In this document: piece by piece, positions 6,641-20,987 of the stretch
Layout: the number at the start of each line of letters is the position of its first letter
Position numbering within the stretch: the stretch's first letter is position 1
Assembly (NCBI GenBank): GCA_012799825.1
Contig: JAAZKK010000050.1
Span: 1 to 29,237, forward strand
DNA: 29,237 bases
Direction of reading: 5' to 3'
DNA from: Clostridiaceae bacterium
GTDB lineage: Bacteria > Bacillota > Clostridia > Saccharofermentanales > DTU023
The notes under the pieces: generated by a model
Told to the model about the DNA's origin: nothing
Databases searched by the model: none
The model's input: the letters and a program-made list of their open reading frames with translations, nothing else
Made by a program: the position numbers and the translations under genes

Positions 6641-7159
6641 AATTTATCCTCCTCTTCGTGATAGCGCCACAAGGCAGAAATCCATTCGCTTCATTGATTC
6701 GTGTCGTCTAAGGTCAGTACGATTGGTTGTATGTCGTCAAACACCATATTTCAAGCCGCTTTCCCATGCCGTTTACGATCTGCTCGTCTGCCCGCACATG
6801 AGTACATGAGATCGGCTTTCTTACAACTTTTTCCAATTTCCAAATTAAATAGTTTTTTTTCTCAACAAAATGAAGAGAGTACAAAGAAGATCGCACTTCC
6901 CTTTTCACTTTTCAACTTCAATTTGTTCTTACTTCTATTTTAGGAGCCGTTGAATGCGCTGAACAGCTACCAATTATGGTAGGTTTGTGCAAAGAAGACA
7001 TGCCTAATCTGTGGTAAGGTCATTTTTTACGAATGATTTACAGAAGATGTATTCCAGCATTAGTGAAGGCCGGCATGAGACCGACCTTCGACATAAATAA
7101 AAATATCACAATCGGTCAGAGCGAATCTTGCGGAAAGATCGCTGACCATTTTATCCTCG

Positions 7160-7449
7160 CGTCTCCCGTGCTGATACGTTGGCTAGCCTCAATTAGACTA
7201 CGTCGGCAGATCTCAGACAAAAGTCTCAGTACATCCCTCTGAGCAGATCGCGCTTAATCGCGTTGGTCGACTTTGACTAGAGCGAGCATGAAAGGTCACT
7301 GACCCTTTCATCCCTGCGTTCTCCGTGCTGATCAGGCTTAAACGCGTTAGCCTGCTTTGATCAGAGTAAGCCGGGCAGATCGCGAGAAAATTCTCCGTAC
7401 GTCACCCAAGGCTGGTCAGGCATGAACGCGTTGACCGACTTTGATTTGA
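7160..7449. repeat. About 86-bp-period array: three decaying copies of the lyase gene 3' end (the fourth copy is the gene end itself, 7408-7495)
   Basis: U3 (7325-7407) is gtgctgatcaggcttaaacgcgttagcctgctttgatcagagtaagccgggcagatcgcgagaaaattctccgtacg. U4 is aggctggtcaggcatgaacgcgttgaccgactttgatttgatcagagcgagtcgggcaggtcgcgggaaaatttttctgcgag. Older units U2 and U1 are still recognisable. Confidence 0.75.
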
Positions 7450-8895
7450 TCAGAGCGAGTCGGGCAGGTCGCGGGAAAATTTTTCTGCGAGTCTCTCCTG
7501 CCAGTCGGACAGGGGGGCGAGTTTCCCGAGGAAAAAACGCAGGATTTTCGGTTCGTGCTCGAAGCGCAGGCCGCCGATCAAATCGCGGTTTTCAAAGAGC
7601 CACGTCACGCGGTCGATCGCGTAGTCGATCTGGCTCAGGGTGAAAACGCGGCGCGGCATCGCAAGCCGCAGGAGCTCCATCTCAGCGATCTTCTCATTCC
7701 CGTCATCATCTCTATTTTCGCTTAGTGTACCGCGCTCCATCCCCCGGATACCACCGGCAATGTAGAGAGCCGCGGCAAGTGCTGCTGCGGGATACTGTTC
7801 TTGAGGAATATGCGGAACGAAACGTGAGGCGTCGAGATGACAGCCAAGTCCGCCCGCCGGCGTCACGACCGGAATGCCGCGTTTTTCGAGTTCGTCGACC
7901 ATGTAGGCGATAAACTCAGGGCCTTGTGACGTTATGGCAAGATCGAGCGTCTCCTCAAGCCCGACGGCAATCGCCTCAATCTCGCGAACGGACATGCCGC
8001 CATACGTGAGAAATCCTTCGTTCAGCACGATCAGCTCTTTGAGCGGATTGACAAGTTCGCTCTCTCTCATGCAGATGCCGCCACCTCGCGCAAAACCGAG
8101 CTTTCTCGCAGAGAAATAAATGATGTCGCACTCGTCAGCAACAGCACGCATGATTTCTCTAAGCGAGAGATCTTTGCATTCCTCATCCTTGATTTTCAAG
8201 AAATAGAGATTGTCCTGAAGAAGTGACGCGTCCATGACAAGCGGGATATCATGCTTCCGACAAATCGCCGCTGCCTCTTTCAGATTCCCGAAGGAGAACG
8301 GTTGCCCGCCGATCAGGTTTGTCCCCGCTTCGATACGGACAAATGGCACTCGATCATTATTCTCCTCCAAAAACTTTGCTAGCGCTTTCGTGTCAAAATT
8401 GCCTTTGAACGGGTAATCACTTTGACAGTTAAGGCCTTCCGGGATAAGAAATTCGATAACCTCACCGCCACAGCGTTCGATATGTGCTCTTGACGTTGTA
8501 AAGTGATAGTTCATTGGCACAATATCACCCGGCTTCACGAGCAGATCTGCGAGAACCTTTTCACAGCCGCGACCTTGGTGGGCAGGCAAAAAGTGTTCCA
8601 TTCCGAAGATGTCTTGGACTGTTTTCTCGAGCCGGAAAAAGGACTCGCTGCCGGCGTAGGCGTCGTCTGCCCTCATCATCGCTGACTGCTGGCGATCGCT
8701 CATCGCGTTGACGCCGCTATCGGTCAACATGTCGAGAAAAATATCCTTATTGTGTAAAAGATAGAGATTGCTCGATGCTTCCTTTAGACGGGCGAGCCGT
8801 TCCTCAACCGGCAGCAGATTCAACTGCTGTACAATGCGCACCTTATGGCGCTCGAGCGGGATTTTCCTGCCGTCAAAAAAAGAGATGGTTTCCAT
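7450..8895 (-). CDS. Beta-eliminating lyase of the tryptophanase / tyrosine phenol-lyase family, with TPL-like signature residues (481 aa)
   Basis: I trimmed ORF 7450..9066 to the ATG at 8895, behind taAGGAGGAacgaacgc. Family motifs are DMLTDSGVNAMSD, the PLP-Lys context YFSARKLG, and GGMSVREIEA. The sequence has FTTS (TPL Thr124 position; tryptophanase has Asp) and LRFF (TPL Phe448; tryptophanase has His). Relative to TPL there is a C-terminal tail of about 18 aa. Confidence 0.9.
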   Translation of the reverse strand: METISFFDGRKIPLERHKVRIVQQLNLLPVEERLARLKEASSNLYLLHNKDIFLDMLTDSGVNAMSDRQQSAMMRADDAYAGSESFFRLEKTVQDIFGMEHFLPAHQGRGCEKVLADLLVKPGDIVPMNYHFTTSRAHIERCGGEVIEFLIPEGLNCQSDYPFKGNFDTKALAKFLEENNDRVPFVRIEAGTNLIGGQPFSFGNLKEAAAICRKHDIPLVMDASLLQDNLYFLKIKDEECKDLSLREIMRAVADECDIIYFSARKLGFARGGGICMRESELVNPLKELIVLNEGFLTYGGMSVREIEAIAVGLEETLDLAITSQGPEFIAYMVDELEKRGIPVVTPAGGLGCHLDASRFVPHIPQEQYPAAALAAALYIAGGIRGMERGTLSENRDDDGNEKIAEMELLRLAMPRRVFTLSQIDYAIDRVTWLFENRDLIGGLRFEHEPKILRFFLGKLAPLSDWQERLAEKFSRDLPDSL

Positions 8896-8986
8896 GCGTT
8901 CGTTCCTCCTTAGCTTTTTTCGATGCCATCGCGGCATCTCGCATGATCCGGCACTCATCGAGCCGGTGATCCGGGGGACGAAATGG

Positions 8987-9027
8987 AATAAAAAACGTCC
9001 GCCCGACATTTTTTGTCGAGAGGACGT
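8987..9027 (-). terminator. Intrinsic terminator of the T-box expression platform
   Basis: RNA ACGUCCUCUCGAC-AAAAAAU-GUCGGGCGGACGU forms a 13-bp stem with one mismatch and one G-U pair, followed by UUUUUAUU. Its 5' arm overlaps the 3' strand of the antiterminator. Confidence 0.85.
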
Positions 9028-9300
9028 CTGCTGACGTGATACCACCTCTCTTCGCTTCCACCTCACGGTGAAAACCTCTGCCGGTACGCCGATTCCTCAC
9101 TGCGAAGACAAAGTGGCCGTCTTCACAAAATCGGTTATACCGCCGCGCTGTCACGGGCGCACCCGTCGCCTCCTACCTCCGATCATACGGTCTCAGGACG
9201 CTGCTCGCGGAATGTATTCATCTCACCGTCTGCTTTTTGCCTCGCACCACCCGGCATATCTCTGGAAGCTTTCAATGGGATTACTTGTTTCCGGTCATGG
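8987..9300 (-). promoter_or_regulatory. T-box riboswitch leader with predicted Tyr (UAC) specifier
   Basis: Read on the minus strand:
- Stem I base CGGAA (9289-9293) pairs with TTCCG (9208-9212).
- AGTA box at 9282-9285.
- AGAGA bulge at 9258-9262.
- Distal loop GGGTGGTGCGAG at 9241-9252.
- Specifier GAA-UAC-A at 9213-9219, immediately before the base helix.
- Antiterminator: GAGAGG (9045-9050) / CCUCUC (9018-9023), a 7-nt bulge UGGUAUC (9038-9044), and ACGUC / GACGU around an AGCA loop.
- A competing terminator at 8987-9027.
- A weak candidate promoter TAGCCA-17-TACAGT lies near 9310-9340. Confidence 0.85.
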
Positions 9301-9617
9301 CATTTATGTTGTTTACTGTACCACAGGAATAGATCTTTGGCTAGACACAAAATGAATGATTTTTTCAAAAACGTCCAGATAGTCCAGATAGTTGAGAATA
9401 ATTCAGCTGAATACTTTCTGAAAACAAAAGAATATACGCAAAAGTGACAACAGAAGCTTAGATATAAAGACATGTTGTTACTTTGCTCTATTCATAAACC
9501 AACACTAGTACTCATTCCGTTACGGACATGACCAGATGAAATGAAGGAACTACAAGGAAAAGCATCTTTAGTCCTATCAGTTTTAGCTCTGACCTGACGG
9601 AACGAGTTAACCTCACA

Positions 9618-10138: not shown

Positions 10139-10906
10139 TCACCTGTCGGACAACAACACCTTGTTCTGATGTGTCCCAACAAGCTGTTGTATGTGCCGAT
10201 AGCTCCCCATCTCCCGGTACGCGTCAGGGAGGCCTGCCTTGTCAAGCATTCTCAGGAAGGAGTAAGCATCGTCGTATATGCGGCTATTGCCTTTTGTGAC
10301 GTAGTAATGCCCGTCGTGCGCTCGGTAATCAATCTCGTATATCTCCGAGCCGGGCACCTTGCCAATGCCAAAATCAATGAGTACCAATTGTTTTTTGTCG
10401 TTTATCAGCAGATTAGTAGCGCTGATGTCACAGTGGACGATTTGGAATTGCCGGAAGCATTTGTGTATCTCGATAAATTCGCCGCAGTACCGCTCAAACA
10501 GGTGCTCATCCGTCGGAATTTCAAAGTTGCGCAAATCAGCAAAAAATTGCGTGACTAGCAACGAGGTGTTTGTATCAAACGCCTTATCACTAGTCAATGT
10601 CCTCGGCACAAAGGGCAAATCGCAACTGGTTACATAGTGGTTGACAAAGATTTCGTTCCGAATGGTGCTGTCATTTTGCGCCAGCTTGACAAAACAAGTC
10701 TCCCCACGGTAATTTCCCTTGTAGTATTTGCGGATGGTTCCCTCACTGTCATCACCGATATACCAATTCTCCGTCCGATAAAGCTGTAAATCGGAAAGGC
10801 CATAGTCGGCTAGCTGGCTGATGGTTCGTCTGTGCTGCTCCGTTAGGTATTCATCCATGAACTGCCTGTGACGGCGCGGGTCGGTTGGAATTGGTTGGCT
10901 ACCCAT
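10139..10906 (-). CDS. Protein-kinase-like (eukaryotic-type kinase fold) protein, possibly a small-molecule kinase (255 aa)
   Basis: RBS AAGGAGGatgcgATG, 20 bp after the yhfX-like stop. It has the catalytic loop HCDISATNLL, the DFG motif LIDFGIG, and a candidate ATP-binding Lys in CFVKL. Confidence 0.8.
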   Translation of the reverse strand: MGSQPIPTDPRRHRQFMDEYLTEQHRRTISQLADYGLSDLQLYRTENWYIGDDSEGTIRKYYKGNYRGETCFVKLAQNDSTIRNEIFVNHYVTSCDLPFVPRTLTSDKAFDTNTSLLVTQFFADLRNFEIPTDEHLFERYCGEFIEIHKCFRQFQIVHCDISATNLLINDKKQLVLIDFGIGKVPGSEIYEIDYRAHDGHYYVTKGNSRIYDDAYSFLRMLDKAGLPDAYREMGSYRHIQQLVGTHQNKVLLSDR

Positions 10907-10926
10907 CGCATCCTCCTTGAGTTTTT

Positions 10927-12084
10927 TCAGTTCAATTGGTTACCGTATTTGTCGAAGATGCCTAGCATACGTGGAGCGCCGGTCCTTAGCCCTTCCACCA
11001 CCGCGATGGATGCATTTACTACGAAAAGCTGCGTTCGGAAAGCATACAGCACACCAGTTCCTACTGGTTCTGAGCATTCCAGCTGCGCATAGTAGTCGAT
11101 GTTGCCCGGCTGTACGTTCTCTGCGTTAACCAAATGATAGCCGCTCTCTTGGGCTACAATGGCGCGATGGATCTTAGCACGTCCATAGAAACCGCCGCCG
11201 AATACACAGCTTTTTCCGTTCCACTTGTGGGAAACCTCAGTAACGTATGCCATCGCCATTATTTCAACGCCGGGTGTACTGGTTGCACTTCGGTAGGTGG
11301 TTCCCGTGAATGCGTGCCCTGGCTCCAGATGAGTGACACCACCCCCGGCCGCTAGGGAAAAGGTAGCGCAGTCGTTCCCGCCCGGAGCATTGACCTGCTG
11401 TACCCGACAACCACAGTTCCTGCCTATATCTACCGCCTTACGCAAGGTATGAAAGTTGTGGGTGGGCTCCACCCGCTCGGAATCAAGACCTAACGCAAAA
11501 CAGGGAAAGGCTGTGAAACCCACAAGTTCCACATGTTCAAGCTGCTGAATTTCCTCAATCACCATCGGAAGTTGCTCAAGGCTAACTCCGCCATATTGCT
11601 GTGGATAGATAGTATCACCGACCTCGGTCACGCGTAGCAACAGTTGCTGCCGTCTACCGCTTTTATTCGCGTGACGGGATATTTTTTTTGCATTTTCAAT
11701 ATCCATCACGGTGATCACTTCTGGATCCATAGCTAGAGCCTCGTCCACACACCACTCAGGAATTTGCATGAGGTGTCCCAAATGCCCAATGACGAAGCCC
11801 TGACGGTGTAACGCCCGTGCTTCATCTATGCTCACAGCCACCGCCCGGGGGATACCACACTCAGCAATGGTCTTGCAAACCACAGGAATGCGCCCAATTT
11901 GCTTGGTCATCATGTACAGCTGCAGACCGAAATTATCCGCCGTTTCTTTTATTACAGAAGCGTTGCGCCGGATCGCGTCTAAGTCCAACACATAGGTGTT
12001 GGGAAGAATCCTACCGGTTCTATGAGCATATATCGACCATTCCACAAGGTCTAAATTCTGCTGAAGCAATGCGTCAACAAACAC
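10927..12084 (-). CDS. yhfX: YhfX-like PLP enzyme (alanine-racemase N-terminal fold, putative amino-acid racemase), 385 aa
   Basis: GTG start at 12084, 7 nt after GGAGGA that lies inside the end of the upstream gene. MFVDALLQQN...YVLDLDAIRRNA...LYMMTKQIGR...GHLGHLMQIP...VTHLEPGHAFTG...FRTQLFV is colinear with E. coli YhfX as I remember it. Confidence 0.85.
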   Translation of the reverse strand: MFVDALLQQNLDLVEWSIYAHRTGRILPNTYVLDLDAIRRNASVIKETADNFGLQLYMMTKQIGRIPVVCKTIAECGIPRAVAVSIDEARALHRQGFVIGHLGHLMQIPEWCVDEALAMDPEVITVMDIENAKKISRHANKSGRRQQLLLRVTEVGDTIYPQQYGGVSLEQLPMVIEEIQQLEHVELVGFTAFPCFALGLDSERVEPTHNFHTLRKAVDIGRNCGCRVQQVNAPGGNDCATFSLAAGGGVTHLEPGHAFTGTTYRSATSTPGVEIMAMAYVTEVSHKWNGKSCVFGGGFYGRAKIHRAIVAQESGYHLVNAENVQPGNIDYYAQLECSEPVGTGVLYAFRTQLFVVNASIAVVEGLRTGAPRMLGIFDKYGNQLN

Positions 12085-12087
12085 GGT

Positions 12088-13194
12088 TCAGTCCTCCTGC
12101 ATTATACTTTTTAGAGCTTCCTTCAAAATCCTCACTACAGTGTCGGCTCCAGCCCGCATAACATTAATGCGAATGTAATAGTTTAGACGCTCGGGGTTCT
12201 CAACGGCGAATGTTCTGGAAACCGTATAAAACAGCGCAGGGATCTCGTATTTCGATTCCGCCCCCACCGGACGGGGAGACGCACCCAGTTTTTCCGCCTG
12301 AGAAAGAACTCTGTAGGCAATGGGCTGTTCAAACTCAACCAAAAGTACTCGGGACTGCATATTGGCAACAAATACCCGACGAATGCCCCAAATCTTTTTG
12401 TCAGCAAGTTTTTGGATATCTACTCGCGCCTGCTCGGTTTGCATTGCCTGCACTGCCATGGCAACCGGTACGTTCACGAGACTTCGCAAGGCCTCCATGG
12501 CCTCCATTCCCTGCACCTGTGAGCCACCGGTACAGTTGCGTCGGCGAATGCGTTGCAGCAACTCGCGCTTGCCCAGCACACAACCAATACCTTCAGGTCC
12601 CTGCAGCTTGAAGAGCGAAAAAGCTGCAAGGTCCGCCCCTGCGGCAATGCCACACAACGGGGTTTTCAGCACAGCGTAGTTGTCGTCCACCACAACCTGA
12701 CACCCACAGCCTTTCAACGTCGCAATCACATCGCGAAGAGAATAGCTGTCGGTGAGCAACTGTCTTGCGTGTTGAACAACCGCTACGCTGGGCTTCTGCA
12801 AGGTAACAACGCTACGGGTTTCCTCCAGATCGTTGTAGTTCGCATTTACAACTCGCAGGGCCATGTCACGCAGGGTGATCTCGGTGGAAGGGTAGATAGG
12901 CGCAGCGTGCACCAGCACACTGCCACCCGGCTGTGCTACCGCCCCAAGAGCCTCACGAATGGCTCCGGTTCCAGCACCACGAACCAAAACGCAGTCCTGC
13001 GCGCCAAAAAATTGCGCCAGCGTCTGTTCTGCAAGGGTCGTGTGCAGGGGGCTACCGCCCTGCACAAGACCAAGATCACCCTGTTGCAAAAAAAGGCCGT
13101 TAGGGAAGTTCCTGTGTATACAATCCACCAATTTGAATTGCAGTTCCATTGCTTGCTCGATCGAAAGGGCATCCAACATTCCTGCTGTTGGCAT
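12088..13194 (-). CDS. yhfS: YhfS-like PLP-dependent enzyme (aminotransferase/lyase fold), 368 aa
   Basis: I trimmed ORF 12088..13257 to the ATG at 13194, behind GAGGTGatgag. Motifs GAGTGAIREAL, VVDDNYAVLK, FSLFKLQGPEGIG and VGAESKYEIPALFY match my recollection of E. coli YhfS. Confidence 0.85.
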   Translation of the reverse strand: MPTAGMLDALSIEQAMELQFKLVDCIHRNFPNGLFLQQGDLGLVQGGSPLHTTLAEQTLAQFFGAQDCVLVRGAGTGAIREALGAVAQPGGSVLVHAAPIYPSTEITLRDMALRVVNANYNDLEETRSVVTLQKPSVAVVQHARQLLTDSYSLRDVIATLKGCGCQVVVDDNYAVLKTPLCGIAAGADLAAFSLFKLQGPEGIGCVLGKRELLQRIRRRNCTGGSQVQGMEAMEALRSLVNVPVAMAVQAMQTEQARVDIQKLADKKIWGIRRVFVANMQSRVLLVEFEQPIAYRVLSQAEKLGASPRPVGAESKYEIPALFYTVSRTFAVENPERLNYYIRINVMRAGADTVVRILKEALKSIMQED

Positions 13195-13247
13195 CTCATC
13201 ACCTCGCATCCTCTGGCTATTTGGTTGTTTTGCGGGACACGCCTCGC

Positions 13248-15296
13248 TCATTCCCAAGTGATGATGAGGTTTCCGCCTTTTTCGCAGTAAAATCTGTCAC
13301 CAGGCCCCACAAAAATTGTGGTGTCCATCTGCTCGATAATGACCGGACCTATTCCCGAATACCCCTGAGGAAGATCATCTCGTCGGAAAACTGGAACCTG
13401 TTGGAAGCCCGTCTCCCGGAAGTAGACCGACCGCTCGGTTGCCGGTTTTGGAACAGCCGCCCCGCCAACTTCAAAGAAGCCTATGTCGCCCGATTTATCC
13501 AGTATACCGAAGCCAGAGCAGCGGATACTGACCAACTCCAGTGGTTCGTCGTTCGAAGCAGCATACCCATAGGACGCTTGATGCAGGACATGGAATTTCT
13601 CGGCTATGACGTCCCACCCATCGCCCGCAATATCCTCCGGATCGATCTCCATGGTCAGCTCGTGAGTCTGAGCCATGTAGCGAAGGTCAGCGTAAATGGT
13701 AAACCGCCGGTGATCCGAGTCAAAATCTGCTCGAGCCAGGTCTTCACTCGCCTTTGTTAGTAGGACATGATAGCGCTTACGTAGCTGGGCAGGTGCGAGT
13801 TCAGATAGTGGCAGAATCACGCTCTCCACGTAATCGTATCGCACGTCGCTCATCAAAAGGCCGATAGCGGCCGTGATGCCGGGGTAGCGGGGAACAATGA
13901 CCTTAGTCATATTCAGTGTTTTAGCAACAGCAACTGCCTGTAACGGACCCGCGCCTCCGCAGGCAAACAGGGCAAACTCCCTGATGTCGAATCCACGGTT
14001 AGCGACCAAACGACGCACGGCGTTGGCAATATTCTCGTTTACGATGTCCAACATGCCCTGAGCCGCCTCGTACACATCCATGCTGAGAGGCTCCGCTATC
14101 TTTTTGGCAATCGCATCGTGGCTCAAGGCAACATTGATGGGGAAGCTACCACCCAAAAGTGCCGTTTGGTTCAGCCGCCCCAGCAACACGTTGGCGTCGG
14201 TAAGTGCCGGTTCCTCACCGCCCTGATTGTAGCACACCGGCCCCGGCATGGCTCCAGCGCTGGTGGGGCCCATGTTCAGCATGCCGCCCCGGTCTATCCA
14301 TGCCAGAGTGCCGCCACCCGCTCCAATGGTAGCCACGTCGATGATGGGTAAATGCACCACGGTGCCAAATTCGATCTCCTGCTCGTCGCGGGTCATTAAT
14401 TCACCGTTATACACTATGGCAATGTCGGTGCTGGTGCCGCCGCTGTCGATAGAAATCACCGACCGCTCGTCAAGCTGCTTCGAAATGCCCTTCATGGCAA
14501 TGGCCGCTGCAGCTGGTCCCGAGAGCAGGGTGCGCGGAGCAATATGCTCCACCGGGTATACTGGCGCCACCCCACCATTGGACAGCATCAAAAGAATATC
14601 ATTTTGATACCCCTTTTCTCGGCTATCCCGACTCAGAATATCGATATAATCCTTCAAAAGGGGTCCCACATAGGCAGCCACGCTCACGGTGCTCATGCGT
14701 TCAAATTCACGCCATTCACGTAACAGCTCGCTTGATGTGGTAACGTACAGATGAGGATATGCCTCACGGATGATGGCTGCCGCCTGTTCCTCGTGGGAGG
14801 GGTTGATGTAGGAGTTGATGAAGCAGATGGCCACAGCTTCAATCCCCTCGCTTGTCATCCCTTCCACCAGACTGAGCAATTCACTCTTATCCACTGAGCG
14901 AATCACATTTCCCATACTGTCGATCCGTTCGTCTAACTCTAGGCGGTAGCGGCGCTCTACCAGCTCATCCGGCTGATCCCATTGTAGATCATATAGCCGA
15001 CCACGAGTGGTGCGACGGATCTTTAAAACATCCCGAAAGCCCCTCGTGGTAATCAAAGCAACTTTCGATCCCTTCTTTTCGATAACGGCGTTTGTGGCTA
15101 TGGTTGTGCCGTGCATAAACAGATCCACAGCGGACAGGTCGTATCCACTTTGGGCAATGGCATTCATTACCCCTTCGCGCAGGTTGTGCGGAGTGCTGTG
15201 CACCTTTTTTACAATGGTTTTTCCGGTGACTGGATCTAGAAAAATCCCGTCGGTAAAGGTTCCGCCAACATCAATTCCTATGTTTGTAGTTTTCAT
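13248..15296 (-). CDS. hyuA: Hydantoinase/oxoprolinase family, A (alpha) subunit, 682 aa
   Basis: MKTTNIGIDVGGTFTDG is the N-terminal ATPase motif, and the ORF is family-length. RBS GAGGGAGG. The ATG overlaps the hyuB stop by 4 bp (ATGA). Confidence 0.9.
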   Translation of the reverse strand: MKTTNIGIDVGGTFTDGIFLDPVTGKTIVKKVHSTPHNLREGVMNAIAQSGYDLSAVDLFMHGTTIATNAVIEKKGSKVALITTRGFRDVLKIRRTTRGRLYDLQWDQPDELVERRYRLELDERIDSMGNVIRSVDKSELLSLVEGMTSEGIEAVAICFINSYINPSHEEQAAAIIREAYPHLYVTTSSELLREWREFERMSTVSVAAYVGPLLKDYIDILSRDSREKGYQNDILLMLSNGGVAPVYPVEHIAPRTLLSGPAAAAIAMKGISKQLDERSVISIDSGGTSTDIAIVYNGELMTRDEQEIEFGTVVHLPIIDVATIGAGGGTLAWIDRGGMLNMGPTSAGAMPGPVCYNQGGEEPALTDANVLLGRLNQTALLGGSFPINVALSHDAIAKKIAEPLSMDVYEAAQGMLDIVNENIANAVRRLVANRGFDIREFALFACGGAGPLQAVAVAKTLNMTKVIVPRYPGITAAIGLLMSDVRYDYVESVILPLSELAPAQLRKRYHVLLTKASEDLARADFDSDHRRFTIYADLRYMAQTHELTMEIDPEDIAGDGWDVIAEKFHVLHQASYGYAASNDEPLELVSIRCSGFGILDKSGDIGFFEVGGAAVPKPATERSVYFRETGFQQVPVFRRDDLPQGYSGIGPVIIEQMDTTIFVGPGDRFYCEKGGNLIITWE

Positions 15297-17026
15297 TCGG
15301 CAGCCTCCCTCATCTCCGCCCGCAGCCGGTCGCTAGCGGCGGTATCCACTTTGTCCTGATCGTCGATGACAATACCATATTCTTGATACAAGTGCTCGCT
15401 TGAGAGAAGCCCGTGCAAGAAATCCTTTTCCGCGAGGGCGTAGTCTCGCTCCAGCGGATCACCGTAGCCGCCGCCGCCTGCAACCAAGACGGTCACCTCG
15501 TCGCCCTCTTTCACTAGGTAGTTGCTGGCTTTCAGGGTAAGGTTCACCTCACGTTCGGTTCCCATGTTTAGTACCAGTCCTTGGGGCATTGCCGGCTTGC
15601 CACCAAACAGACCCCAAGGAGGAAATTTCTCCCTGTCACCGAGGGCGCTCAGTTTTGCGGTGCCTCGAGCTATCACAAAGCGCTTGATAGAGCCGTTGCC
15701 ACCCCGAAAGCGGCCAGGGCCACCCGAGTCCTGTCGTAGCGACCACTGGTTGAACAGTATGGGGTACTTGCGCTCAAACACCTCCACGGGGGTGATGCGA
15801 GCACCGCCCCCAAACAGTGACACAAGGCCAGAAGAGCCGTCCTTGGTGGCACGCCCGCCAAAGCCACCTTCGCTGAAAAGATACATCACATAGTATTCGC
15901 CGGTCTTGTCGTCCACACCTCCCATAACTAAGTTGATCAGCCCGTGGGGGCACCCGGTGGACTTTTCTGGGCAGGCATGGGCCAGCGCGCCCAATGAGAC
16001 GCCGATTACTTTCTCGTACACCGTGCCCGCCATGGCGCTAATGGCCGCGGGAGGTCGTGCGTTCACCACCGTTCCCTCGGGGATGATGAAGGAAATGGGC
16101 AGAAAACAGCCGTAGCTCATGGGAACATCGGGAAACAGCGACTTTATTGTGACGATGACTGCCGATACCGTGGAGGAATATGTGCCGTTAGCGGCGCTGC
16201 GTGTCTGTGGGTCAGAGCCTGAAAAATCAAATTCCATGCGATTTCCCTTCACCGTCATCTTCACGGCAATTTTCACCGGGTCTTTGCAATACTTACTTTC
16301 CTCGTCCATATACTCTTCAAAGAAATAGCTACCGTCTGGAATTTTATCAATCTCCTTTTCCAGCATCACCTTGGCGTACTCAATGGTTTCTTCCATAAAC
16401 TCTAGGATGTTTTCCACACCGTACTTATCCGCCAACTCGATGACCCGGCGCTCGCCAATGGCTACCGAGGATATCTGGGAGGAGAGGTCTCCCTCTCGCT
16501 CCCAAGGAATGCGCACGTTTGACATGATGATATCGTGGACACCCTTGGCCATTACGCCACGCTCCATAATCTTCACTGGCGGTATGCGGAGACCTTCTTC
16601 AAAGTGCTCTTCAGCAACAGAGTTCAGGCTACCAGGTGTAGAACCTCCCACGTCAGCCCAGTGCCCAGCAATGGCCACAAATCCAATGCGCTTGCCCTTG
16701 TAAAACACTGGCTTGATGACCCCTACATCGTTGAAATGGGTGCCGCCAATAAAGGGGTCATTGTTGATAAACACATCGCCTTCAAACAAGTTTCCTTCGT
16801 AGACTTCCACGATTTTTCGCACGGAATATTGCATCATAGTAACGAATACCCCTAGGTCAGATTCTCCCTGAACGATCAAATTGCCGTTACCATTGAATAA
16901 GGCAGCACCTATATCCCGTCCTTCTGTAATGACCGCGGAATAAGCCGAGCGAAACATGTTGATATTCATTTCATCTGCAATACTTTTAAAGGCGCTTTGC
17001 AAAACCGAAAAAGTAATGGTATCCAT
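15293..17026 (-). CDS. hyuB: Hydantoinase B / oxoprolinase family, B (beta) subunit, 577 aa
   Basis: I trimmed ORF 15293..17293 to the ATG at 17026, behind GGAGGAcaatt. MDTITFSVLQSAFKSIADEMN...ITEGRDIGAALF is the typical N-terminus. The upstream in-frame extension overlaps the permease gene. Confidence 0.9.
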   Translation of the reverse strand: MDTITFSVLQSAFKSIADEMNINMFRSAYSAVITEGRDIGAALFNGNGNLIVQGESDLGVFVTMMQYSVRKIVEVYEGNLFEGDVFINNDPFIGGTHFNDVGVIKPVFYKGKRIGFVAIAGHWADVGGSTPGSLNSVAEEHFEEGLRIPPVKIMERGVMAKGVHDIIMSNVRIPWEREGDLSSQISSVAIGERRVIELADKYGVENILEFMEETIEYAKVMLEKEIDKIPDGSYFFEEYMDEESKYCKDPVKIAVKMTVKGNRMEFDFSGSDPQTRSAANGTYSSTVSAVIVTIKSLFPDVPMSYGCFLPISFIIPEGTVVNARPPAAISAMAGTVYEKVIGVSLGALAHACPEKSTGCPHGLINLVMGGVDDKTGEYYVMYLFSEGGFGGRATKDGSSGLVSLFGGGARITPVEVFERKYPILFNQWSLRQDSGGPGRFRGGNGSIKRFVIARGTAKLSALGDREKFPPWGLFGGKPAMPQGLVLNMGTEREVNLTLKASNYLVKEGDEVTVLVAGGGGYGDPLERDYALAEKDFLHGLLSSEHLYQEYGIVIDDQDKVDTAASDRLRAEMREAAE

Positions 17027-17115
17027 AATTGTCCTCCAATGGCTTGTAAGTTGCCACAGTTTGGTTACTGGTTTACCTATACTGATCGCCGTATCAGCAG
17101 AAGGTACCGCCGAGC

Positions 17116-18420
17116 TTAGTTTTTGGCAGGAATTGGCTTCATTACCTTGCTTAGGACGAGGTAAGCCACACCGCCCACAACCAGACTGTTGATGCCCGAA
17201 ACACCGATGGCAGCGTAGGGCAGCACACCCAAGGGATTGCCGGTAAAAAAGTCTGCAACAACCGCGATAATCCATGCTAGTATGGCCGGCCAATGGAAAT
17301 CCCCTATACCTTCAGTCTTTTTTTCAACGCCCCGCCTTACATAGAAATAGTCGATGGCGATAATGATGCCAATAGGCGGCATGAGCATGGCCAGTACTCC
17401 CAGATAGACAGCTAGATTCGTATACACGCCGGTAGCGCACACAATTGTTCCGATGAGCACCGTGACGATGGTGAAGATGTATTTTGGCATTTTGAACAGT
17501 TTAGAAAGAGCTAACCCGGCGGAATAGACGTTGTTGTCAGCAGAGGACCAAGTGGAAAACAGCAGAAGCAGAAAGCCGATGACGGTGAATAGTTTGCCTC
17601 CCATAGTCACGATGAGAGTCACCAGATCGGGGCTTCCGGTGCCCTTCACCGCAATGGCACCTAGAGAAACAAAGATGAAGAATCCGAGACCGAAAGAGAG
17701 CAACGAGGCTCTTGCAGCGCTTTTTCCAGTCTTGTCATAACGAGTCACATCTCCTGCCAGCGTGGCGCCGGCGATAAAAATACCGATGGTGGTGGTAACG
17801 CCCGTACCAAAGGTGATTGGAGCAGTTGTGGGGCCAATTTGGTTGATAGCAGTCCAACCGCCGCCGGCGATGATACCCTTGATAGCAGCAATCAGAACGA
17901 GTAGACACATGGGAACAACGATGAAGTTGCTGAGTGCAGCAACGCCCCTAAAGCCCAAAAAGGCGGAGGTGCCCATGAGTAGGCTAGCTATGATGCCACC
18001 TGACACGGTCAGTGAGCCGCTTGCCATCCCAAACAAAGCCTCTAGACTAGGGATGAAAAACCCAACGGTTACACCGTAAAACAGTATGTTGGCAATTGCC
18101 ATGGCAGCTGCCACGATGTTGGAACCCCTTTCGCCAAACGCGATTCTCGCAACCATAGATGTGGACAAGCCCTCCTTGGCGCCAATCATTGCCAGCGGCA
18201 TGGAGTAGACACCCAAAATCACGGCGCCTACAAAGATGGCCAGCAGAGCCATGGGCAGGGTCATGCCGGTGGCAATGTTGCCTCCTGTGATGGCAGGAGC
18301 AGGGTTTATGACCCAGCACAACAGCACGGAGATGATGGTGAACATACTTTTTCGTTCGCTTTGTGGTACTACGGACAGTTCGTTATCTTGCAAAACGCTC
18401 TTGCTTTTACTCTTGTTCAT
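17116..18420 (-). CDS. NCS1-family (purine-cytosine / hydantoin-type) permease, 434 aa
   Basis: RBS GAGGAGGTaagtatcATG. About 12 hydrophobic segments. The N-terminus ...VVPQSERKSMFTIISVLLCWVINPAP is typical of CodB-like transporters. Confidence 0.88.
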   Translation of the reverse strand: MNKSKSKSVLQDNELSVVPQSERKSMFTIISVLLCWVINPAPAITGGNIATGMTLPMALLAIFVGAVILGVYSMPLAMIGAKEGLSTSMVARIAFGERGSNIVAAAMAIANILFYGVTVGFFIPSLEALFGMASGSLTVSGGIIASLLMGTSAFLGFRGVAALSNFIVVPMCLLVLIAAIKGIIAGGGWTAINQIGPTTAPITFGTGVTTTIGIFIAGATLAGDVTRYDKTGKSAARASLLSFGLGFFIFVSLGAIAVKGTGSPDLVTLIVTMGGKLFTVIGFLLLLFSTWSSADNNVYSAGLALSKLFKMPKYIFTIVTVLIGTIVCATGVYTNLAVYLGVLAMLMPPIGIIIAIDYFYVRRGVEKKTEGIGDFHWPAILAWIIAVVADFFTGNPLGVLPYAAIGVSGINSLVVGGVAYLVLSKVMKPIPAKN

Positions 18421-18587
18421 GATACTTACCTCCTCATTTTCTTTTACTATGGTGTATCATTGTGTATCCCGCAGGTGTCCTCACTCGACAGAAGTGTGTC
18501 CTGTCTTTTTAGTGGGGAGTTTCACACAAACGGGAAACTTCCAACCGGATTTATCCGCCTCCACAGAACACTGCGCAGCGGGTGCCT

Positions 18588-19811
18588 TTATACCGGAAAA
18601 GCCGGCAGGGCAAGTAGCTCTAAAAAGCTAGTGCCGTTTTCTGGCGAAGCGGCACCGAAGTAAGCGGTGGCGGTTGCCCCTATGTCAGAAAGGGTCTCAC
18701 ACACACCAATGTTCAAGGGTCCACCCTGATGAGAATGGATCATCAAAGGCACCATTTCCCGAGTGTGGTGCGGATGGCCAATGGCGGGATCGTTCCCATG
18801 ATCCGCCATCACCACCAAGATATCGTCACCGCTCAATTCCCCTACAATGTCCGCAATGCCCGCGTCGGCAACCTCGAGTATGCTGGCAAATAACATCGCG
18901 TCCTCCTGGTGGCCACTCAAATCAGTTTCCTGCACATTGACGCAAAAAAAGCCAGATTTCTCTTTTCGTAAAAGCGCTAGGGTCTCCTTTAGAACGGCTC
19001 TTGTGTCCACCATAGATACACTGGTTCCGTAGGCATTGCTCACCACATCTGCCACCTTACCAAGCAGGTACACCGGTACGTCCATCTTCCCTAGAATAGT
19101 AGGCACCTGCACCTCCGCATTCACTCCGTAACCCAAATGTACGCAATGGTAATCGCTTCGGTATACGCCTGAGGCGGGAGCGTTGACTCCGATATAAGCT
19201 CCATATTCTTCTATGGCGGCCAACATGTCCGGTAGATGCACCCCTCGTCCTCCGAAAACGATTACTCGTGAAATGGTGCTAACCTCACGCACAAGCCGCC
19301 CAACCTCCACTGCCCACTCAAATGAAATGTCGTCGAGGGCAACCGTGACATTGAACGCCAAGCCAGGATCACACTCGATATTGTCGGCAATAGTAATACA
19401 CTCCTCTACAATCAGTAGCCGCTCTTGATCGCCCTGATACACACGGGTATTCCATCCGTTTTTGGTTAGAGTATCGTTTATTGTGTCCAGTTTGTTCTTG
19501 ATCGGTTCCATGACAGGTTTTTTTGGCAAGGTGCCCATGATCTCCTGATGGCCGAAGAAGGTATCCGCGCCGTCGTGCATAAGCTTTGCCCTTCCCCACA
19601 CCGCCGTTTTGCTGTACAGGATAGAATTCGTCTCAAATCCGCTGGCATTGGCAAGACCCAACCGCGACAAGGTGGGCAACTCAAGAGAAGGCACCGCTTT
19701 TACTATGTGCGCAAAGGTATTAGCGCCATGGTCTTGCGGACGCACAGAAGACACGTCAGGCATCTCCCCGATGCCAAAACCATCCAAGACAATAACAATG
19801 AATCTTCCCAT
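18588..19811 (-). CDS. yhfW: YhfW-like phosphopentomutase / metalloenzyme-superfamily phosphomutase, 407 aa
   Basis: MGRFIVIVLDGFGIGEMPDV is the DeoB/YhfW metal-binding N-terminus, and ADHGNDP lies near the C-terminus. I prefer the ATG at 19811, behind GAAAGGcgcaaa. The ATG at 19844 is an alternative start. Confidence 0.85.
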   Translation of the reverse strand: MGRFIVIVLDGFGIGEMPDVSSVRPQDHGANTFAHIVKAVPSLELPTLSRLGLANASGFETNSILYSKTAVWGRAKLMHDGADTFFGHQEIMGTLPKKPVMEPIKNKLDTINDTLTKNGWNTRVYQGDQERLLIVEECITIADNIECDPGLAFNVTVALDDISFEWAVEVGRLVREVSTISRVIVFGGRGVHLPDMLAAIEEYGAYIGVNAPASGVYRSDYHCVHLGYGVNAEVQVPTILGKMDVPVYLLGKVADVVSNAYGTSVSMVDTRAVLKETLALLRKEKSGFFCVNVQETDLSGHQEDAMLFASILEVADAGIADIVGELSGDDILVVMADHGNDPAIGHPHHTREMVPLMIHSHQGGPLNIGVCETLSDIGATATAYFGAASPENGTSFLELLALPAFPV

Positions 19812-20060
19812 TTTGCGCCTTTCTGCTTGGGATGGTGTTAACAACTAACTTATATACAGAATTTTGTACTATTTGCTATATCATATCACGTGTTTTACCC
19901 TGCGTCAATGCACGATACATATGAATTATTTGTTTATAAATTGTGCATTTTCCATAATTATTCGGAATCATTATTGCTCTTTTCTCTGCGTGATGATATA
20001 GTTCTATTGATATATATATTACTCTGTATATTTAAATTGTTGCATAAGGAGGACATTGTT

Positions 20061-20987
20061 ATGAGTTCGGCCAACACCATGTTCCGACAAAAAGTGGGCA
20101 TCGCTGCACAGCAAATTGCCGCTCAAATCATCCCGCTGGACGTGGGAAACCGGGTTCCGACAGTTTCGGATTGGACCCTGCAGTTAGGCGTTGCGCGAGG
20201 TACGATCCAGACGGCAATCCAATATTTGAGAGATTCTGGTGCTGTCAAACTACAGTTCAGGGGGAAAAAGGGTTCCTATATTGTACAGATGGATCGTATG
20301 AAACTTACTGAAATAGCAGGCTTACACGGTTTGATTGGGGTTATGCCGCTTCCGTATTCTAAAAAATACGAGGGGCTAGCAACGGGAATTTATAATGTAT
20401 TAAACGATGCCGGGCTGAACACCAACCTAGCTTTTATGCGTGGATCCGATAACCGCCTGCGCACACTTATGCAAGAGCGGTGCGATTTTGCGGTGATGTC
20501 AGAGCTAACCGCTGAGTACTACATAAAAATGGGTTATCAGGTTGCGGTAGTGCTGAACCTAGGCAATTTTTCCTATGTGGACAAGCACGTGGTGTTGGTA
20601 AGAAAGGACTTTAAAGGCCATTTCAACGGTTTAAAGGTAGGTGTTGACAACTCCTCCATCGATCAGAAAATGATGACGGCCTCCTTTTTTGAAAGATACA
20701 ACGTAACCTACGTCCCGCTCATTTACAGCGATATCATTGCCAGTCTTCGAAGTAGAAAAATAGACGCCGCTGTATGGAATTTTGACAATATTAATTTCTC
20801 GGAAAACGAACTCTCCTATTTGCCGATCAGCCAGAATGAGTTGCAAATTGCCGACACTCGTGCAGTGATTCTATGTCGCCAGGCTGATACACTGGTGTGT
20901 TCCCTTCTGGGAAAAAACGTAAACGCCCAAAGCATCTTAGAATATCAGCGCGACGTTCTCGTAGGCAGAATGACTCCGCGCTACTGA
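20061..20987 (+). CDS. yhfZ: YhfZ-like transcriptional regulator (N-terminal HTH plus YhfZ C-terminal ligand domain), 308 aa
   Basis: I trimmed ORF 19890..20987 to the ATG at 20061, behind AAGGAGGacattgtt. GVARGTIQTAIQYLRDSGAV, MPLPYSKKYEGLATG and LAFMRGSDNRL match my memory of E. coli YhfZ. The gene is divergent from the operon. Confidence 0.85.
   Translation: MSSANTMFRQKVGIAAQQIAAQIIPLDVGNRVPTVSDWTLQLGVARGTIQTAIQYLRDSGAVKLQFRGKKGSYIVQMDRMKLTEIAGLHGLIGVMPLPYSKKYEGLATGIYNVLNDAGLNTNLAFMRGSDNRLRTLMQERCDFAVMSELTAEYYIKMGYQVAVVLNLGNFSYVDKHVVLVRKDFKGHFNGLKVGVDNSSIDQKMMTASFFERYNVTYVPLIYSDIIASLRSRKIDAAVWNFDNINFSENELSYLPISQNELQIADTRAVILCRQADTLVCSLLGKNVNAQSILEYQRDVLVGRMTPRY

Follow-up and report, generated by a model that had tools for sequence, protein, structure and literature searches.

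The stretch of DNA analysed here (29,237 nt, contig JAAZKK010000050.1 of the Clostridiaceae bacterium assembly GCA_012799825.1; referred to below as the window) carries, on its minus strand, a gene for a pyridoxal phosphate (PLP)-dependent lyase related to tyrosine phenol-lyase (TPL), preceded by a T-box riboswitch with a tyrosine specifier. We put at roughly 60% the probability that this T-box-controlled lyase, which falls in a sister clade of TPL, forms tyrosine instead of breaking it down, with phenol as the most likely precursor. Three mechanistically different tyrosine sensors, an enzyme depleted in tyrosine and canonical homologues without such sensors point to induction of the lyase by tyrosine starvation, which is well supported by the sequence comparisons, and such induction in turn points to a tyrosine-supplying role. 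A first-pass annotation of the same DNA had argued for supply rather than consumption of tyrosine; the conservation of the T-box, the convergent attenuators of related loci, the tyrosine depletion and the sensor-free control loci all favour supply, while the phenol substrate, the synthetic direction of catalysis and the induction in vivo are what we infer from here onward.

A permissive scan of positions 8800-9500 with the Rfam T-box model (RF00230) matched the minus strand at 9307-9017 over model positions 1-219, with 89.1 bits and an E-value of 5.4e-20. The match covered the full model, all of the Stem I elements named in the first-pass annotation were located (Table 1), and the window leader is confirmed as a complete, canonical transcription-terminating T-box riboswitch. 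With default settings, the Rfam scan gave no match anywhere in the window; the leader escaped it and was found by the permissive scan because its score lies under the gathering threshold, apparently as a result of an insertion of ~60 nt placed after the Stem IIA/B-F-box region and before the antiterminator. This insertion (within 9053-9140, minus strand) carries a GGUAUAACCG...CGGCGUACCGG hairpin whose closing stem is GGUAU...GUACC. Most of the 23 related leaders have a comparable GUAU-hairpin-GUAC element, and an additional helix specific to the lineage is thus suggested for the Stem IIA/B-Stem III region.

The specifier loop was read as GAA-UAC-A (9219-9213) directly adjoining the basal helix CGGAA/UUCCG, in agreement with the initial reading. 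The antiterminator, GAGG[UGGUAUC]ACGUC-AGCA-GACGU-CCUC, occupies 9048-9020 of the minus strand (GAGG at 9048-9045 and CCUC at 9023-9020), and its 7-nt bulge UGGUAUC (9044-9038) presents UGGU for pairing with the ACCA 3' end of a tRNA. The 5' arm of the terminator is also the 3' strand of the antiterminator (GACGUCCUC), and the two structures are therefore mutually exclusive, as had been noted. By direct folding, the terminator hairpin had a free energy of -21.8 kcal/mol and a z-score of -5.7, with none of 200 shuffles equally stable, and its stem includes an internal mismatch. A simple promoter and terminator scanner applied to 8800-9500 called nothing, and the terminator was shown by the direct fold instead. 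The candidate promoter upstream of Stem I, likewise missed by the scanner, is weak (8 of 12 consensus matches); TGTGGTATGGT, which resembles it, is present at the equivalent position in the closest relative.

The conservation of the leader was analysed in 80 genomic loci of the lyase clade, and the leaders compared were the 23 orthologous ones, or 24 with that of the window. The T-box sequence GGUGGUA was present 70-435 nt upstream of the lyase start in 23 of the 80 loci, and a profile built from the 24 leaders found exactly the same 23 loci and no others. The same T-box was identified in 19 further loci among 56 clade-level loci of a metagenome scan. UAC occupies the specifier position of all 24 leaders, mostly as GAAUACA, and the AGUA and UAC columns are invariant in the 23-sequence Stem I alignment. 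A register and covariation script found UAC followed by one nucleotide (A in 18, G in 1) and a basal helix of 3-6 bp in 19 of the 23 orthologous leaders; the remaining four differ only in register or by a single mismatch. The basal helix covaries among these leaders (AGA/UCU, GGA/UCC, GCG/CGC, GGG/CCC, GAA/UUC), and the Stem I elements of the window leader (UGA, AGUA, AGAGA, distal loop and GAA) were also found in all 23. RNAalifold analysis of a MAFFT alignment of the 23 Stem I sequences recovered the distal helix alone, because the variable helices were misaligned.

The purine and helix geometry, together with the tyrosine-codon leaders of related loci described below, identify UAC as the specifier, and on the same grounds the adjacent frames AUA and ACA were rejected. 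GGUGGUA is kept in 23 of 23 orthologous leaders and the UGGU bulge in every leader, consistent with a tRNA carrying A73, which is the discriminator base of bacterial tRNA-Tyr. The window T-box is thus predicted, from its UAC specifier and UGGU bulge, to be specific for tRNA-Tyr. The tyrosine T-box is retained in front of lyases that have diverged to ~63% identity, and terminator-like hairpins with U-tracts are kept in the leaders inspected, that of the window included. The association of a tyrosine T-box with this lyase is general and conserved across diverse Firmicutes, and the recurrence of the UAC leader in front of orthologues in 23 of 80 genomes greatly exceeds what chance would give.

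The window lyase belongs to the beta-eliminating lyase family (PF01212, E 3.7e-47) and passes only a broad NCBIfam subfamily model, NF009709 (580.9 bits against a cutoff of 285). Its best relatives in the PDB are TPLs (E 2e-117 to 6e-109, full length, ~45% identity), with tryptophanases ranking behind (E 3e-96 and weaker). The PLP lysine K265 corresponds to TPL K257 and is invariant in the clade. Window residues Y80, F132-T133, N193, D222, M386, R388, R410 and F454-F455 correspond to TPL Y71, F123-T124, N185, D214, M379, R381, R404 and F448-F449. At the positions that discriminate TPL from tryptophanase, the window lyase has FTT, GMERG and LRFF, which are of the TPL type (T124, R381, F448); in the control loci, canonical TPLs carry YFTT/MER/LRFF and tryptophanases HFDT/VEI(CEI)/LRHF. 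The FTT and RFF motifs, and the absence of the tryptophanase Asp and His, had been recognised in the first-pass annotation and are borne out by the alignment, where the equivalents of Y71, F123, T124, N185, D214, K257, R381, R404, F448 and F449 are invariant among 127 clade members, and that of M379 is present in 126 of the 127.

Clade members are proteins of 479-483 residues that annotation pipelines label 'tryptophanase' or 'tyrosine phenol-lyase'. The clade is very large, with members 60-89% identical in Clostridia, Bacilli, Synergistaceae, Spirochaetes, purple Alphaproteobacteria (Rhodopseudomonas palustris BisB18, Rhodovulum, Rhodomicrobium), Thauera, Acidobacteriota and even the metagenome-assembled genome (MAG) of a Bathyarchaeon. 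The tryptophanase label is unsupported, since the window lyase falls below the cutoff of the tryptophanase equivalog TIGR02617 (343 bits against 826) and has Thr and Phe in the Asp and His positions. The earlier description of the enzyme as TPL-like holds for the conserved TPL residues; judged by its sequence, however, the protein is a member of a distinct, uncharacterised, cross-phylum sister clade with an invariantly altered active site, not a canonical TPL. No stop codon interrupts the lyase frame across the terminator region as far as a GTG at 9066 (8896-9066, minus strand), and the extended frame was called as a spurious ORF of 538 residues. This start was rejected, as an ATG at 8895 preceded by a Shine-Dalgarno (SD) sequence and the homologue alignments fix the start.

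In at least 11 loci of the clade, the T-box is replaced by a leader peptide with 4-7 consecutive tyrosine codons and a terminator. Among the 80 genomic loci (1.73 Mb, both strands), runs of at least five tyrosine codons occurred twice, both in sense orientation and directly in front of the lyase gene, once in a Synergistaceae MAG (locus L058; leader at 1385-1600 with upstream ORF MLKNFVNAVFTYYYYYYERGFFFERTVL) and once in a Clostridiales MAG (locus L079; leader at 1435-1585 with upstream ORF MTRSINFTAAYYYYYRAGSCLAVRR). The fold of both leaders is that of a classical attenuator, comprising a hairpin at the tyrosine codons and a strong terminator (z-scores of -6.3 for L058 and -4.7 for L079). Alternative 2:3 pairings were identified by eye and involve AGCUGUCUUGCUG and CAGCGGACAGCU in L079, and AGGGUUCUUUUUU and AAAAAAGAGCCCU in L058. 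When the L058 enzyme was used to seed a metagenome scan (0.42 Mb counted on both strands), nine runs of at least four tyrosine codons were obtained, all of which are such leaders, and in loci L082-L087, L126, L129, L130 and L135 the tyrosine-codon leaders lie 100-370 nt upstream of the lyase start.

The peptides fall into at least five unrelated families, with synonymous TAT/TAC variation. The L058 type comprises L058 and L081-L085, of which L082-L085 retain 5-7 tyrosines with synonymous TAT/TAC changes, while L086/L129 and L087 have YYYY in a peptide unrelated to this type. The L135 peptide is MGRGYYYYRTGAPERRVGLL, that of L126 contains YYCYYY behind a weak SD-like sequence, and L130 has a long tyrosine-rich leader peptide. 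Those of L058/L081-L085, L086/L129, L087, L135, L079 and L126 are 20-29 residues long with 4-7 tyrosines. Every folded metagenome leader has an SD-like sequence and a strong terminator hairpin; L129, whose peptide equals that of L086, was not folded separately. With an SD sequence, a short ORF, a codon run, alternative hairpins and a terminator, these leaders have the make-up of leader-peptide transcription attenuators and are predicted to act as such. To our knowledge, no attenuator built on a run of tyrosine codons has been described.

In four T-box loci (L026, L050, L070, L077), a homologous upstream ORF (uORF) preceded by an SD sequence, M[D/E]xDY[Y/A][Y/K].., lies between the T-box terminator and the lyase (peptides MDDDYYKYIM.., MESDYYYFKL.., MDPDYYYRHL.. 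and MEADYAYQAL..). It spans ~-80 to +13 relative to the lyase start, overlaps the ribosome-binding site of the lyase and ends on or slightly past the start; it may constitute a second, translational tyrosine sensor stacked on the T-box. Neither a T-box nor a tyrosine run was found in 23 control loci encoding TPL- or tryptophanase-type enzymes (37-42% identity).

Leaders of other kinds were also seen. Four Firmicutes loci carry a conserved GUAG-repeat leader (L003:5800-6003, L005:3943-4146, L008:5800-6003 and L055:4733-4936), in which G(U/C)AG or UGGUAG motifs stand in two groups of three, with ~8-nt spacing inside a group and ~20 nt between the groups, followed by a terminator. It matched no Rfam family and resembles protein-binding attenuators of the HutP or TRAP type. 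Repeats of GGAUGGUA, similar to the GUAG type, are present 3' of the T-box in L012 and L020. In L017, a Bacillota MAG without a T-box, a mini-uORF (MVEKYYY*) lies at ~-250 from the lyase start and may precede the actual promoter.

The composition of the enzyme was compared between loci with and without the T-box. T-box-controlled lyases contain on average 11.1 tyrosines versus 15.1 in those without a T-box (Mann-Whitney p 2.5e-7, kinship ignored). Phenylalanine compensates in the T-box-controlled set (27.2 versus 23.8, p 3e-6), whereas the sets do not differ in Trp, His or Met. The lowest tyrosine count among members without a T-box is 8, in L058, the locus with the YYYYYY leader. Solved TPLs have 20-22 tyrosines per 450 residues and the control TPLs 21-28. 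The window lyase has 11 tyrosines (2.3%) versus 3.5% in 16 other window proteins. As the set without a T-box includes high-GC Proteobacteria, GC bias opposes the trend. The composition would fit an enzyme that bears the mark of tyrosine scarcity.

Through T-boxes and codon-run attenuators alike, a shortage of the cognate aminoacyl-tRNA increases expression, and the genes under such control are those for aminoacyl-tRNA synthetases, biosynthesis and uptake. In the proposed mechanism, charged tRNA-Tyr would allow the terminator (9029-8990) to form and the lyase gene would be off. When tyrosine is scarce, uncharged tRNA-Tyr would base-pair at both the specifier and the UGGU bulge, the antiterminator would be stabilised and RNA polymerase would read into the lyase gene. 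The residues responsible for binding and activating the 4-hydroxyphenyl ring, and for cleaving or forming the Cbeta-Cgamma bond, are conserved, which makes TPL chemistry toward tyrosine the simplest reading, and the lyase most likely catalyses the reversible TPL chemistry at this bond of tyrosine. TPL is reversible and also forms tyrosine from phenol and serine, or from phenol, pyruvate and ammonium, a property used industrially for tyrosine and L-3,4-dihydroxyphenylalanine (L-DOPA); the beta-replacement with phenol and serine is thermodynamically favourable. An enzyme made only under tyrosine starvation would most likely run physiologically toward tyrosine, here from phenol and L-serine (beta-replacement) or from phenol, pyruvate and NH4+ (reverse alpha,beta-elimination). 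The lyase would then be a one-step 'tyrosine synthase' for phenol salvage, suited to anaerobic habitats rich in phenol and ammonia. To judge from the record names, the clade loci come from activated sludge, anaerobic digesters, bioreactors and the guts of termites and other animals, and phenol and ammonium are common in digester, gut and sludge habitats.

A number of findings weigh against synthesis of tyrosine from phenol, and they bear on the leader, the enzyme, the wider clade and the gene context. The T-box score is 4 bits short of the RF00230 gathering score of 93, and is thus slightly sub-threshold. No tRNA gene is present in the window and no tRNA-Tyr gene in 60 related loci scanned. 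The statistic for tyrosine depletion is uncorrected for phylogeny.

As to the enzyme, neither the PDB nor the full-text literature searched yielded a characterised clade member, and the window lyase fails the TPL equivalog TIGR02618 (428.8 bits against a cutoff of 720.7). The clade-specific changes R217L, K256R and M288F are invariant among the 127 members, a new Arg (R270; Lys in four members) follows the PLP lysine, and a 25-residue C-terminal tail carries an invariant Trp (W465). Arg217 of TPL is the counterpart of tryptophanase Arg230, and Lys256 adjoins the PLP lysine. The three substitutions and the tail may be an adaptation to a tyrosine-forming role or, with R270, the sign of a different reaction or substrate. 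The lyase might, for example, yield tyrosine or relieve starvation by a reaction that does not involve phenol, either by converting a tyrosine-related compound or by destroying an antimetabolite such as m-tyrosine, DOPA or a halogenated or nitrated tyrosine; the logic of the T-box would be unchanged and only the chemistry would be another. TPLs accept many ring-substituted tyrosines, and an antimetabolite that blocks tyrosyl-tRNA synthetase would mimic starvation and trigger the T-box and the tyrosine-codon attenuators alike. Nevertheless, the residues for an unsubstituted 4-hydroxyphenyl ring (T124, R381, F448, F449, and M379 in all members but one) are conserved together with the general acid Y71, the tyrosine depletion of the enzyme fits true tyrosine scarcity better than poisoning by an analogue, and the gene context suggests no specific alternative substrate. 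We therefore regard a reaction of this kind as unlikely, and favour synthesis from phenol.

Across the clade, more than half of the loci, mostly outside Firmicutes and Synergistaceae (Proteobacteria, Spirochaetes and others), have no recognisable tyrosine sensor, and the clade need not therefore share one physiological direction. The GUAG-repeat leaders of the four Firmicutes loci could, in addition, represent substrate-inducible control. Both observations would suit an ordinary catabolic TPL, with a T-box association that is non-adaptive or a leader that is not switched on by starvation here, and the closest characterised relatives are indeed catabolic TPLs, while databases label the protein as tryptophanase or TPL. 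Such a reading would have to accommodate a tyrosine T-box that has been kept during the divergence of the lyases with a covarying basal helix, an invariant UAC and terminator-like hairpins, and at least five unrelated tyrosine-codon attenuators that evolved before the same gene, while the loci of canonical TPL and TnaA are without both sensors. The enzyme is itself depleted in tyrosine, and destruction of tyrosine switched on by uncharged tRNA-Tyr would be maladaptive. Ordinary catabolism consequently receives very little credence, and a tyrosine-forming role remains the preferred interpretation of the window locus.

The analysis of the gene context showed the lyase to be a stand-alone gene and a single-gene regulatory unit. 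BLAST clustering of 764 flanking ORFs from the 80 loci gave no conserved partner gene, only generic families (ATP-binding cassette ATPases, two-component systems, short-chain dehydrogenases/reductases), and when the 115 genes around the loci with leaders were assigned to Pfam families, no family occurred in more than three of these loci. By these two approaches, no UbiD, UbiX, UbiC, TyrA or transporter gene was found among the neighbours of the clade loci. The lack of a conserved partner fits one-step salvage; however, no phenol-producing or phenol-transporting gene is linked among the 115 flanking genes, and the source of phenol is assumed. One conceivable source is internal, with the lyase catalysing the final reaction of a de novo route that bypasses TyrA and runs from chorismate through 4-hydroxybenzoate and phenol to tyrosine, in place of the salvage of environmental phenol. 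The tight wiring of the enzyme to tyrosine starvation in many lineages and the high conservation of the clade (at least 60% identity across phyla) would agree with such a route, as would the fact that 4-hydroxybenzoate decarboxylases are common in anaerobes. Its likelihood is small, in that no UbiC-, UbiD- or UbiX-like or other recurrent gene is linked (115 flanking genes; 80 loci), and free phenol as an obligatory intracellular intermediate would be toxic and without a known precedent.

We also considered, more tentatively, that the clade as a whole is a dedicated tyrosine synthase of many gut and digester anaerobes, mislabelled as tryptophanase, and in some lineages the sole route to tyrosine, replacing TyrA. 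This broader proposal is doubtful. Phenol would in that case be obtained through obligate cross-feeding from TPL-positive neighbours or through the internal route from chorismate by way of 4-hydroxybenzoate.

The window neighbours are unrelated to the lyase. Downstream are flavin mononucleotide reductases and a helix-turn-helix regulator, and upstream is a yhfS-X/hydantoinase cluster. The latter, on the minus strand at 10139-19844, encodes yhfS/yhfX-like PLP enzymes, hydantoinase/oxoprolinase A and B, a permease of the cytosine/purine type, a metalloenzyme-superfamily protein and a kinase-like ORF, with a divergently transcribed gene for a YhfZ-type regulator beside it (19890-20987, plus strand). 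The whole (10139-20987) is probably an uncharacterised catabolic island without relation to the lyase. At the 3' end of the lyase gene, the first of the degenerate direct repeats listed in Table 1 overlaps the last ~45 nt of the coding sequence, and the second copy would encode ..EFSRDLPGLL*; a partial tandem duplication or a repeat element are possible origins.

Table 1. Positions of the lyase gene, the elements of its leader and the adjoining repeats in the window.
Feature	Position	Strand	Basis
Candidate promoter: -35 TAGCCA (9343-9338), 17-nt spacer, extended -10 TGG-TACAGT (9323-9315)	9315-9343	minus	read from sequence
T-box Stem I	9190-9307	minus	Rfam alignment
K-turn-type UGA	9297-9295	minus	sequence and Rfam alignment
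Basal helix CGGAA / UUCCG	9293-9289 / 9212-9208	minus	sequence and Rfam alignment
Specifier loop AGUA (S-turn)	9285-9282	minus	sequence and Rfam alignment
AG bay AGAGA	9263-9259	minus	sequence and Rfam alignment
Distal loop GGGUGGUGCGAGG	9252-9240	minus	sequence and Rfam alignment
GAA 5' of the specifier	9219-9217	minus	sequence and Rfam alignment
Specifier codon UAC (Tyr)	9216-9214	minus	Rfam alignment, orthologue alignment, register/covariation script
Purine A between specifier and basal helix	9213	minus	sequence and Rfam alignment
Stem II, Stem IIA/B-F-box region (GACGGGUGCGCCCGUGA), ~60-nt insertion, Stem III	9053-9189	minus	Rfam alignment
T-box sequence / antiterminator region	9020-9052	minus	Rfam alignment
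Intrinsic terminator (stem 9029-8993, U-tract to 8990)	8990-9029	minus	direct fold
Spacer from terminator to start, with small hairpins and SD AAGGAGG (8911-8905)	8896-8989	minus	sequence
PLP-dependent beta-eliminating lyase, 481 aa, TPL-sister clade (ATG 8895)	7450-8895	minus	ORF, domain, structure-homologue and clade alignments
Degenerate direct repeats of ~85 nt, 4-5 copies	7130-7505		sequence comparison

In searches covering 8 million full texts, neither TPL nor tryptophanase was linked to a T-box or an attenuator in any report, an earlier mention remaining possible, and no account of physiological salvage of phenol to tyrosine came up. A census of T-box regulons lists no TPL or tryptophanase gene, and the earlier remark that TPL is not among the described regulon members agrees with both sources. 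The riboswitch and the enzyme fold are of known kinds; what is new is their combination, the convergent attenuators and the anabolic role that they imply. An unexpected member of the tyrosine T-box regulon and apparently undescribed attenuators with tyrosine-codon runs are thus all directed at one uncharacterised clade. The predicted natural one-step route from phenol to tyrosine would bear on amino-acid cross-feeding within communities of anaerobes. Both phenol and indole give rise to uraemic toxins, and among the 'TPL/tryptophanase' genes of gut metagenomes this clade may remove phenol instead of producing it; were the whole clade a tyrosine synthase, genes now counted in metagenomes as phenol or indole producers would be phenol consumers. 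A lyase evolved for synthesis would also interest biocatalytic makers of tyrosine and DOPA analogues. The phenol-to-tyrosine hypothesis is open to direct test by simple genetics and enzymology.

Compared with known tyrosine T-boxes (RF00230; prototype, the Bacillus subtilis tyrS leader), the window leader shares the full architecture, the UAC + A specifier and UGGU. It differs by the ~60-nt insertion and by a TPL-like target gene, which is not an aminoacyl-tRNA synthetase, a recognised biosynthetic gene or a transporter; some relatives add a tyrosine-codon uORF over the ribosome-binding site. With TPL (EC 4.1.99.2; Citrobacter freundii 2EZ1/1TPL, Erwinia herbicola 1C7G, and 9J3U), the lyase shares the PF01212 fold family, ~45% full-length identity and the catalytic residues, whereas its clade is separate, below the TIGR02618 cutoff, with R217L/K256R/M288F, the extra R270, the tail with W465 and about half the tyrosine content. 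Regulation is opposite as well, since in enterobacteria tyrosine acts through TyrR to induce tpl, while the window clade lies behind sensors of tyrosine starvation.

The TnaA and tnaC system has in common with that of the window a homologous enzyme family and a leader that senses the cognate amino acid. TnaA is likewise reversible, forms tryptophan from indole and supports growth of E. coli trp mutants on indole. It differs at the three specificity positions, which in TnaA are D, I/V and H (HFDT, VEI, LRHF), and tnaC senses free tryptophan and induces catabolism, which is the opposite logic to a T-box or a tyrosine-codon-run attenuator. The leaders of the relatives share with the trpL, pheL and hisL attenuators the SD sequence, the short ORF with a codon run, the 1:2, 2:3 and 3:4 hairpins and the intrinsic terminator. 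A precedent is the T-box-regulated pah gene of the Bacillus cereus group, where likewise a single tyrosine-forming enzyme, phenylalanine hydroxylase, is under tyrosine-starvation control (PMC2494555). From the trpL-type and pah systems, the clade differs in that its enzyme comes from a family regarded as catabolic, and the proposed step from phenol to tyrosine would have its analogue in the salvage of indole by TrpB.

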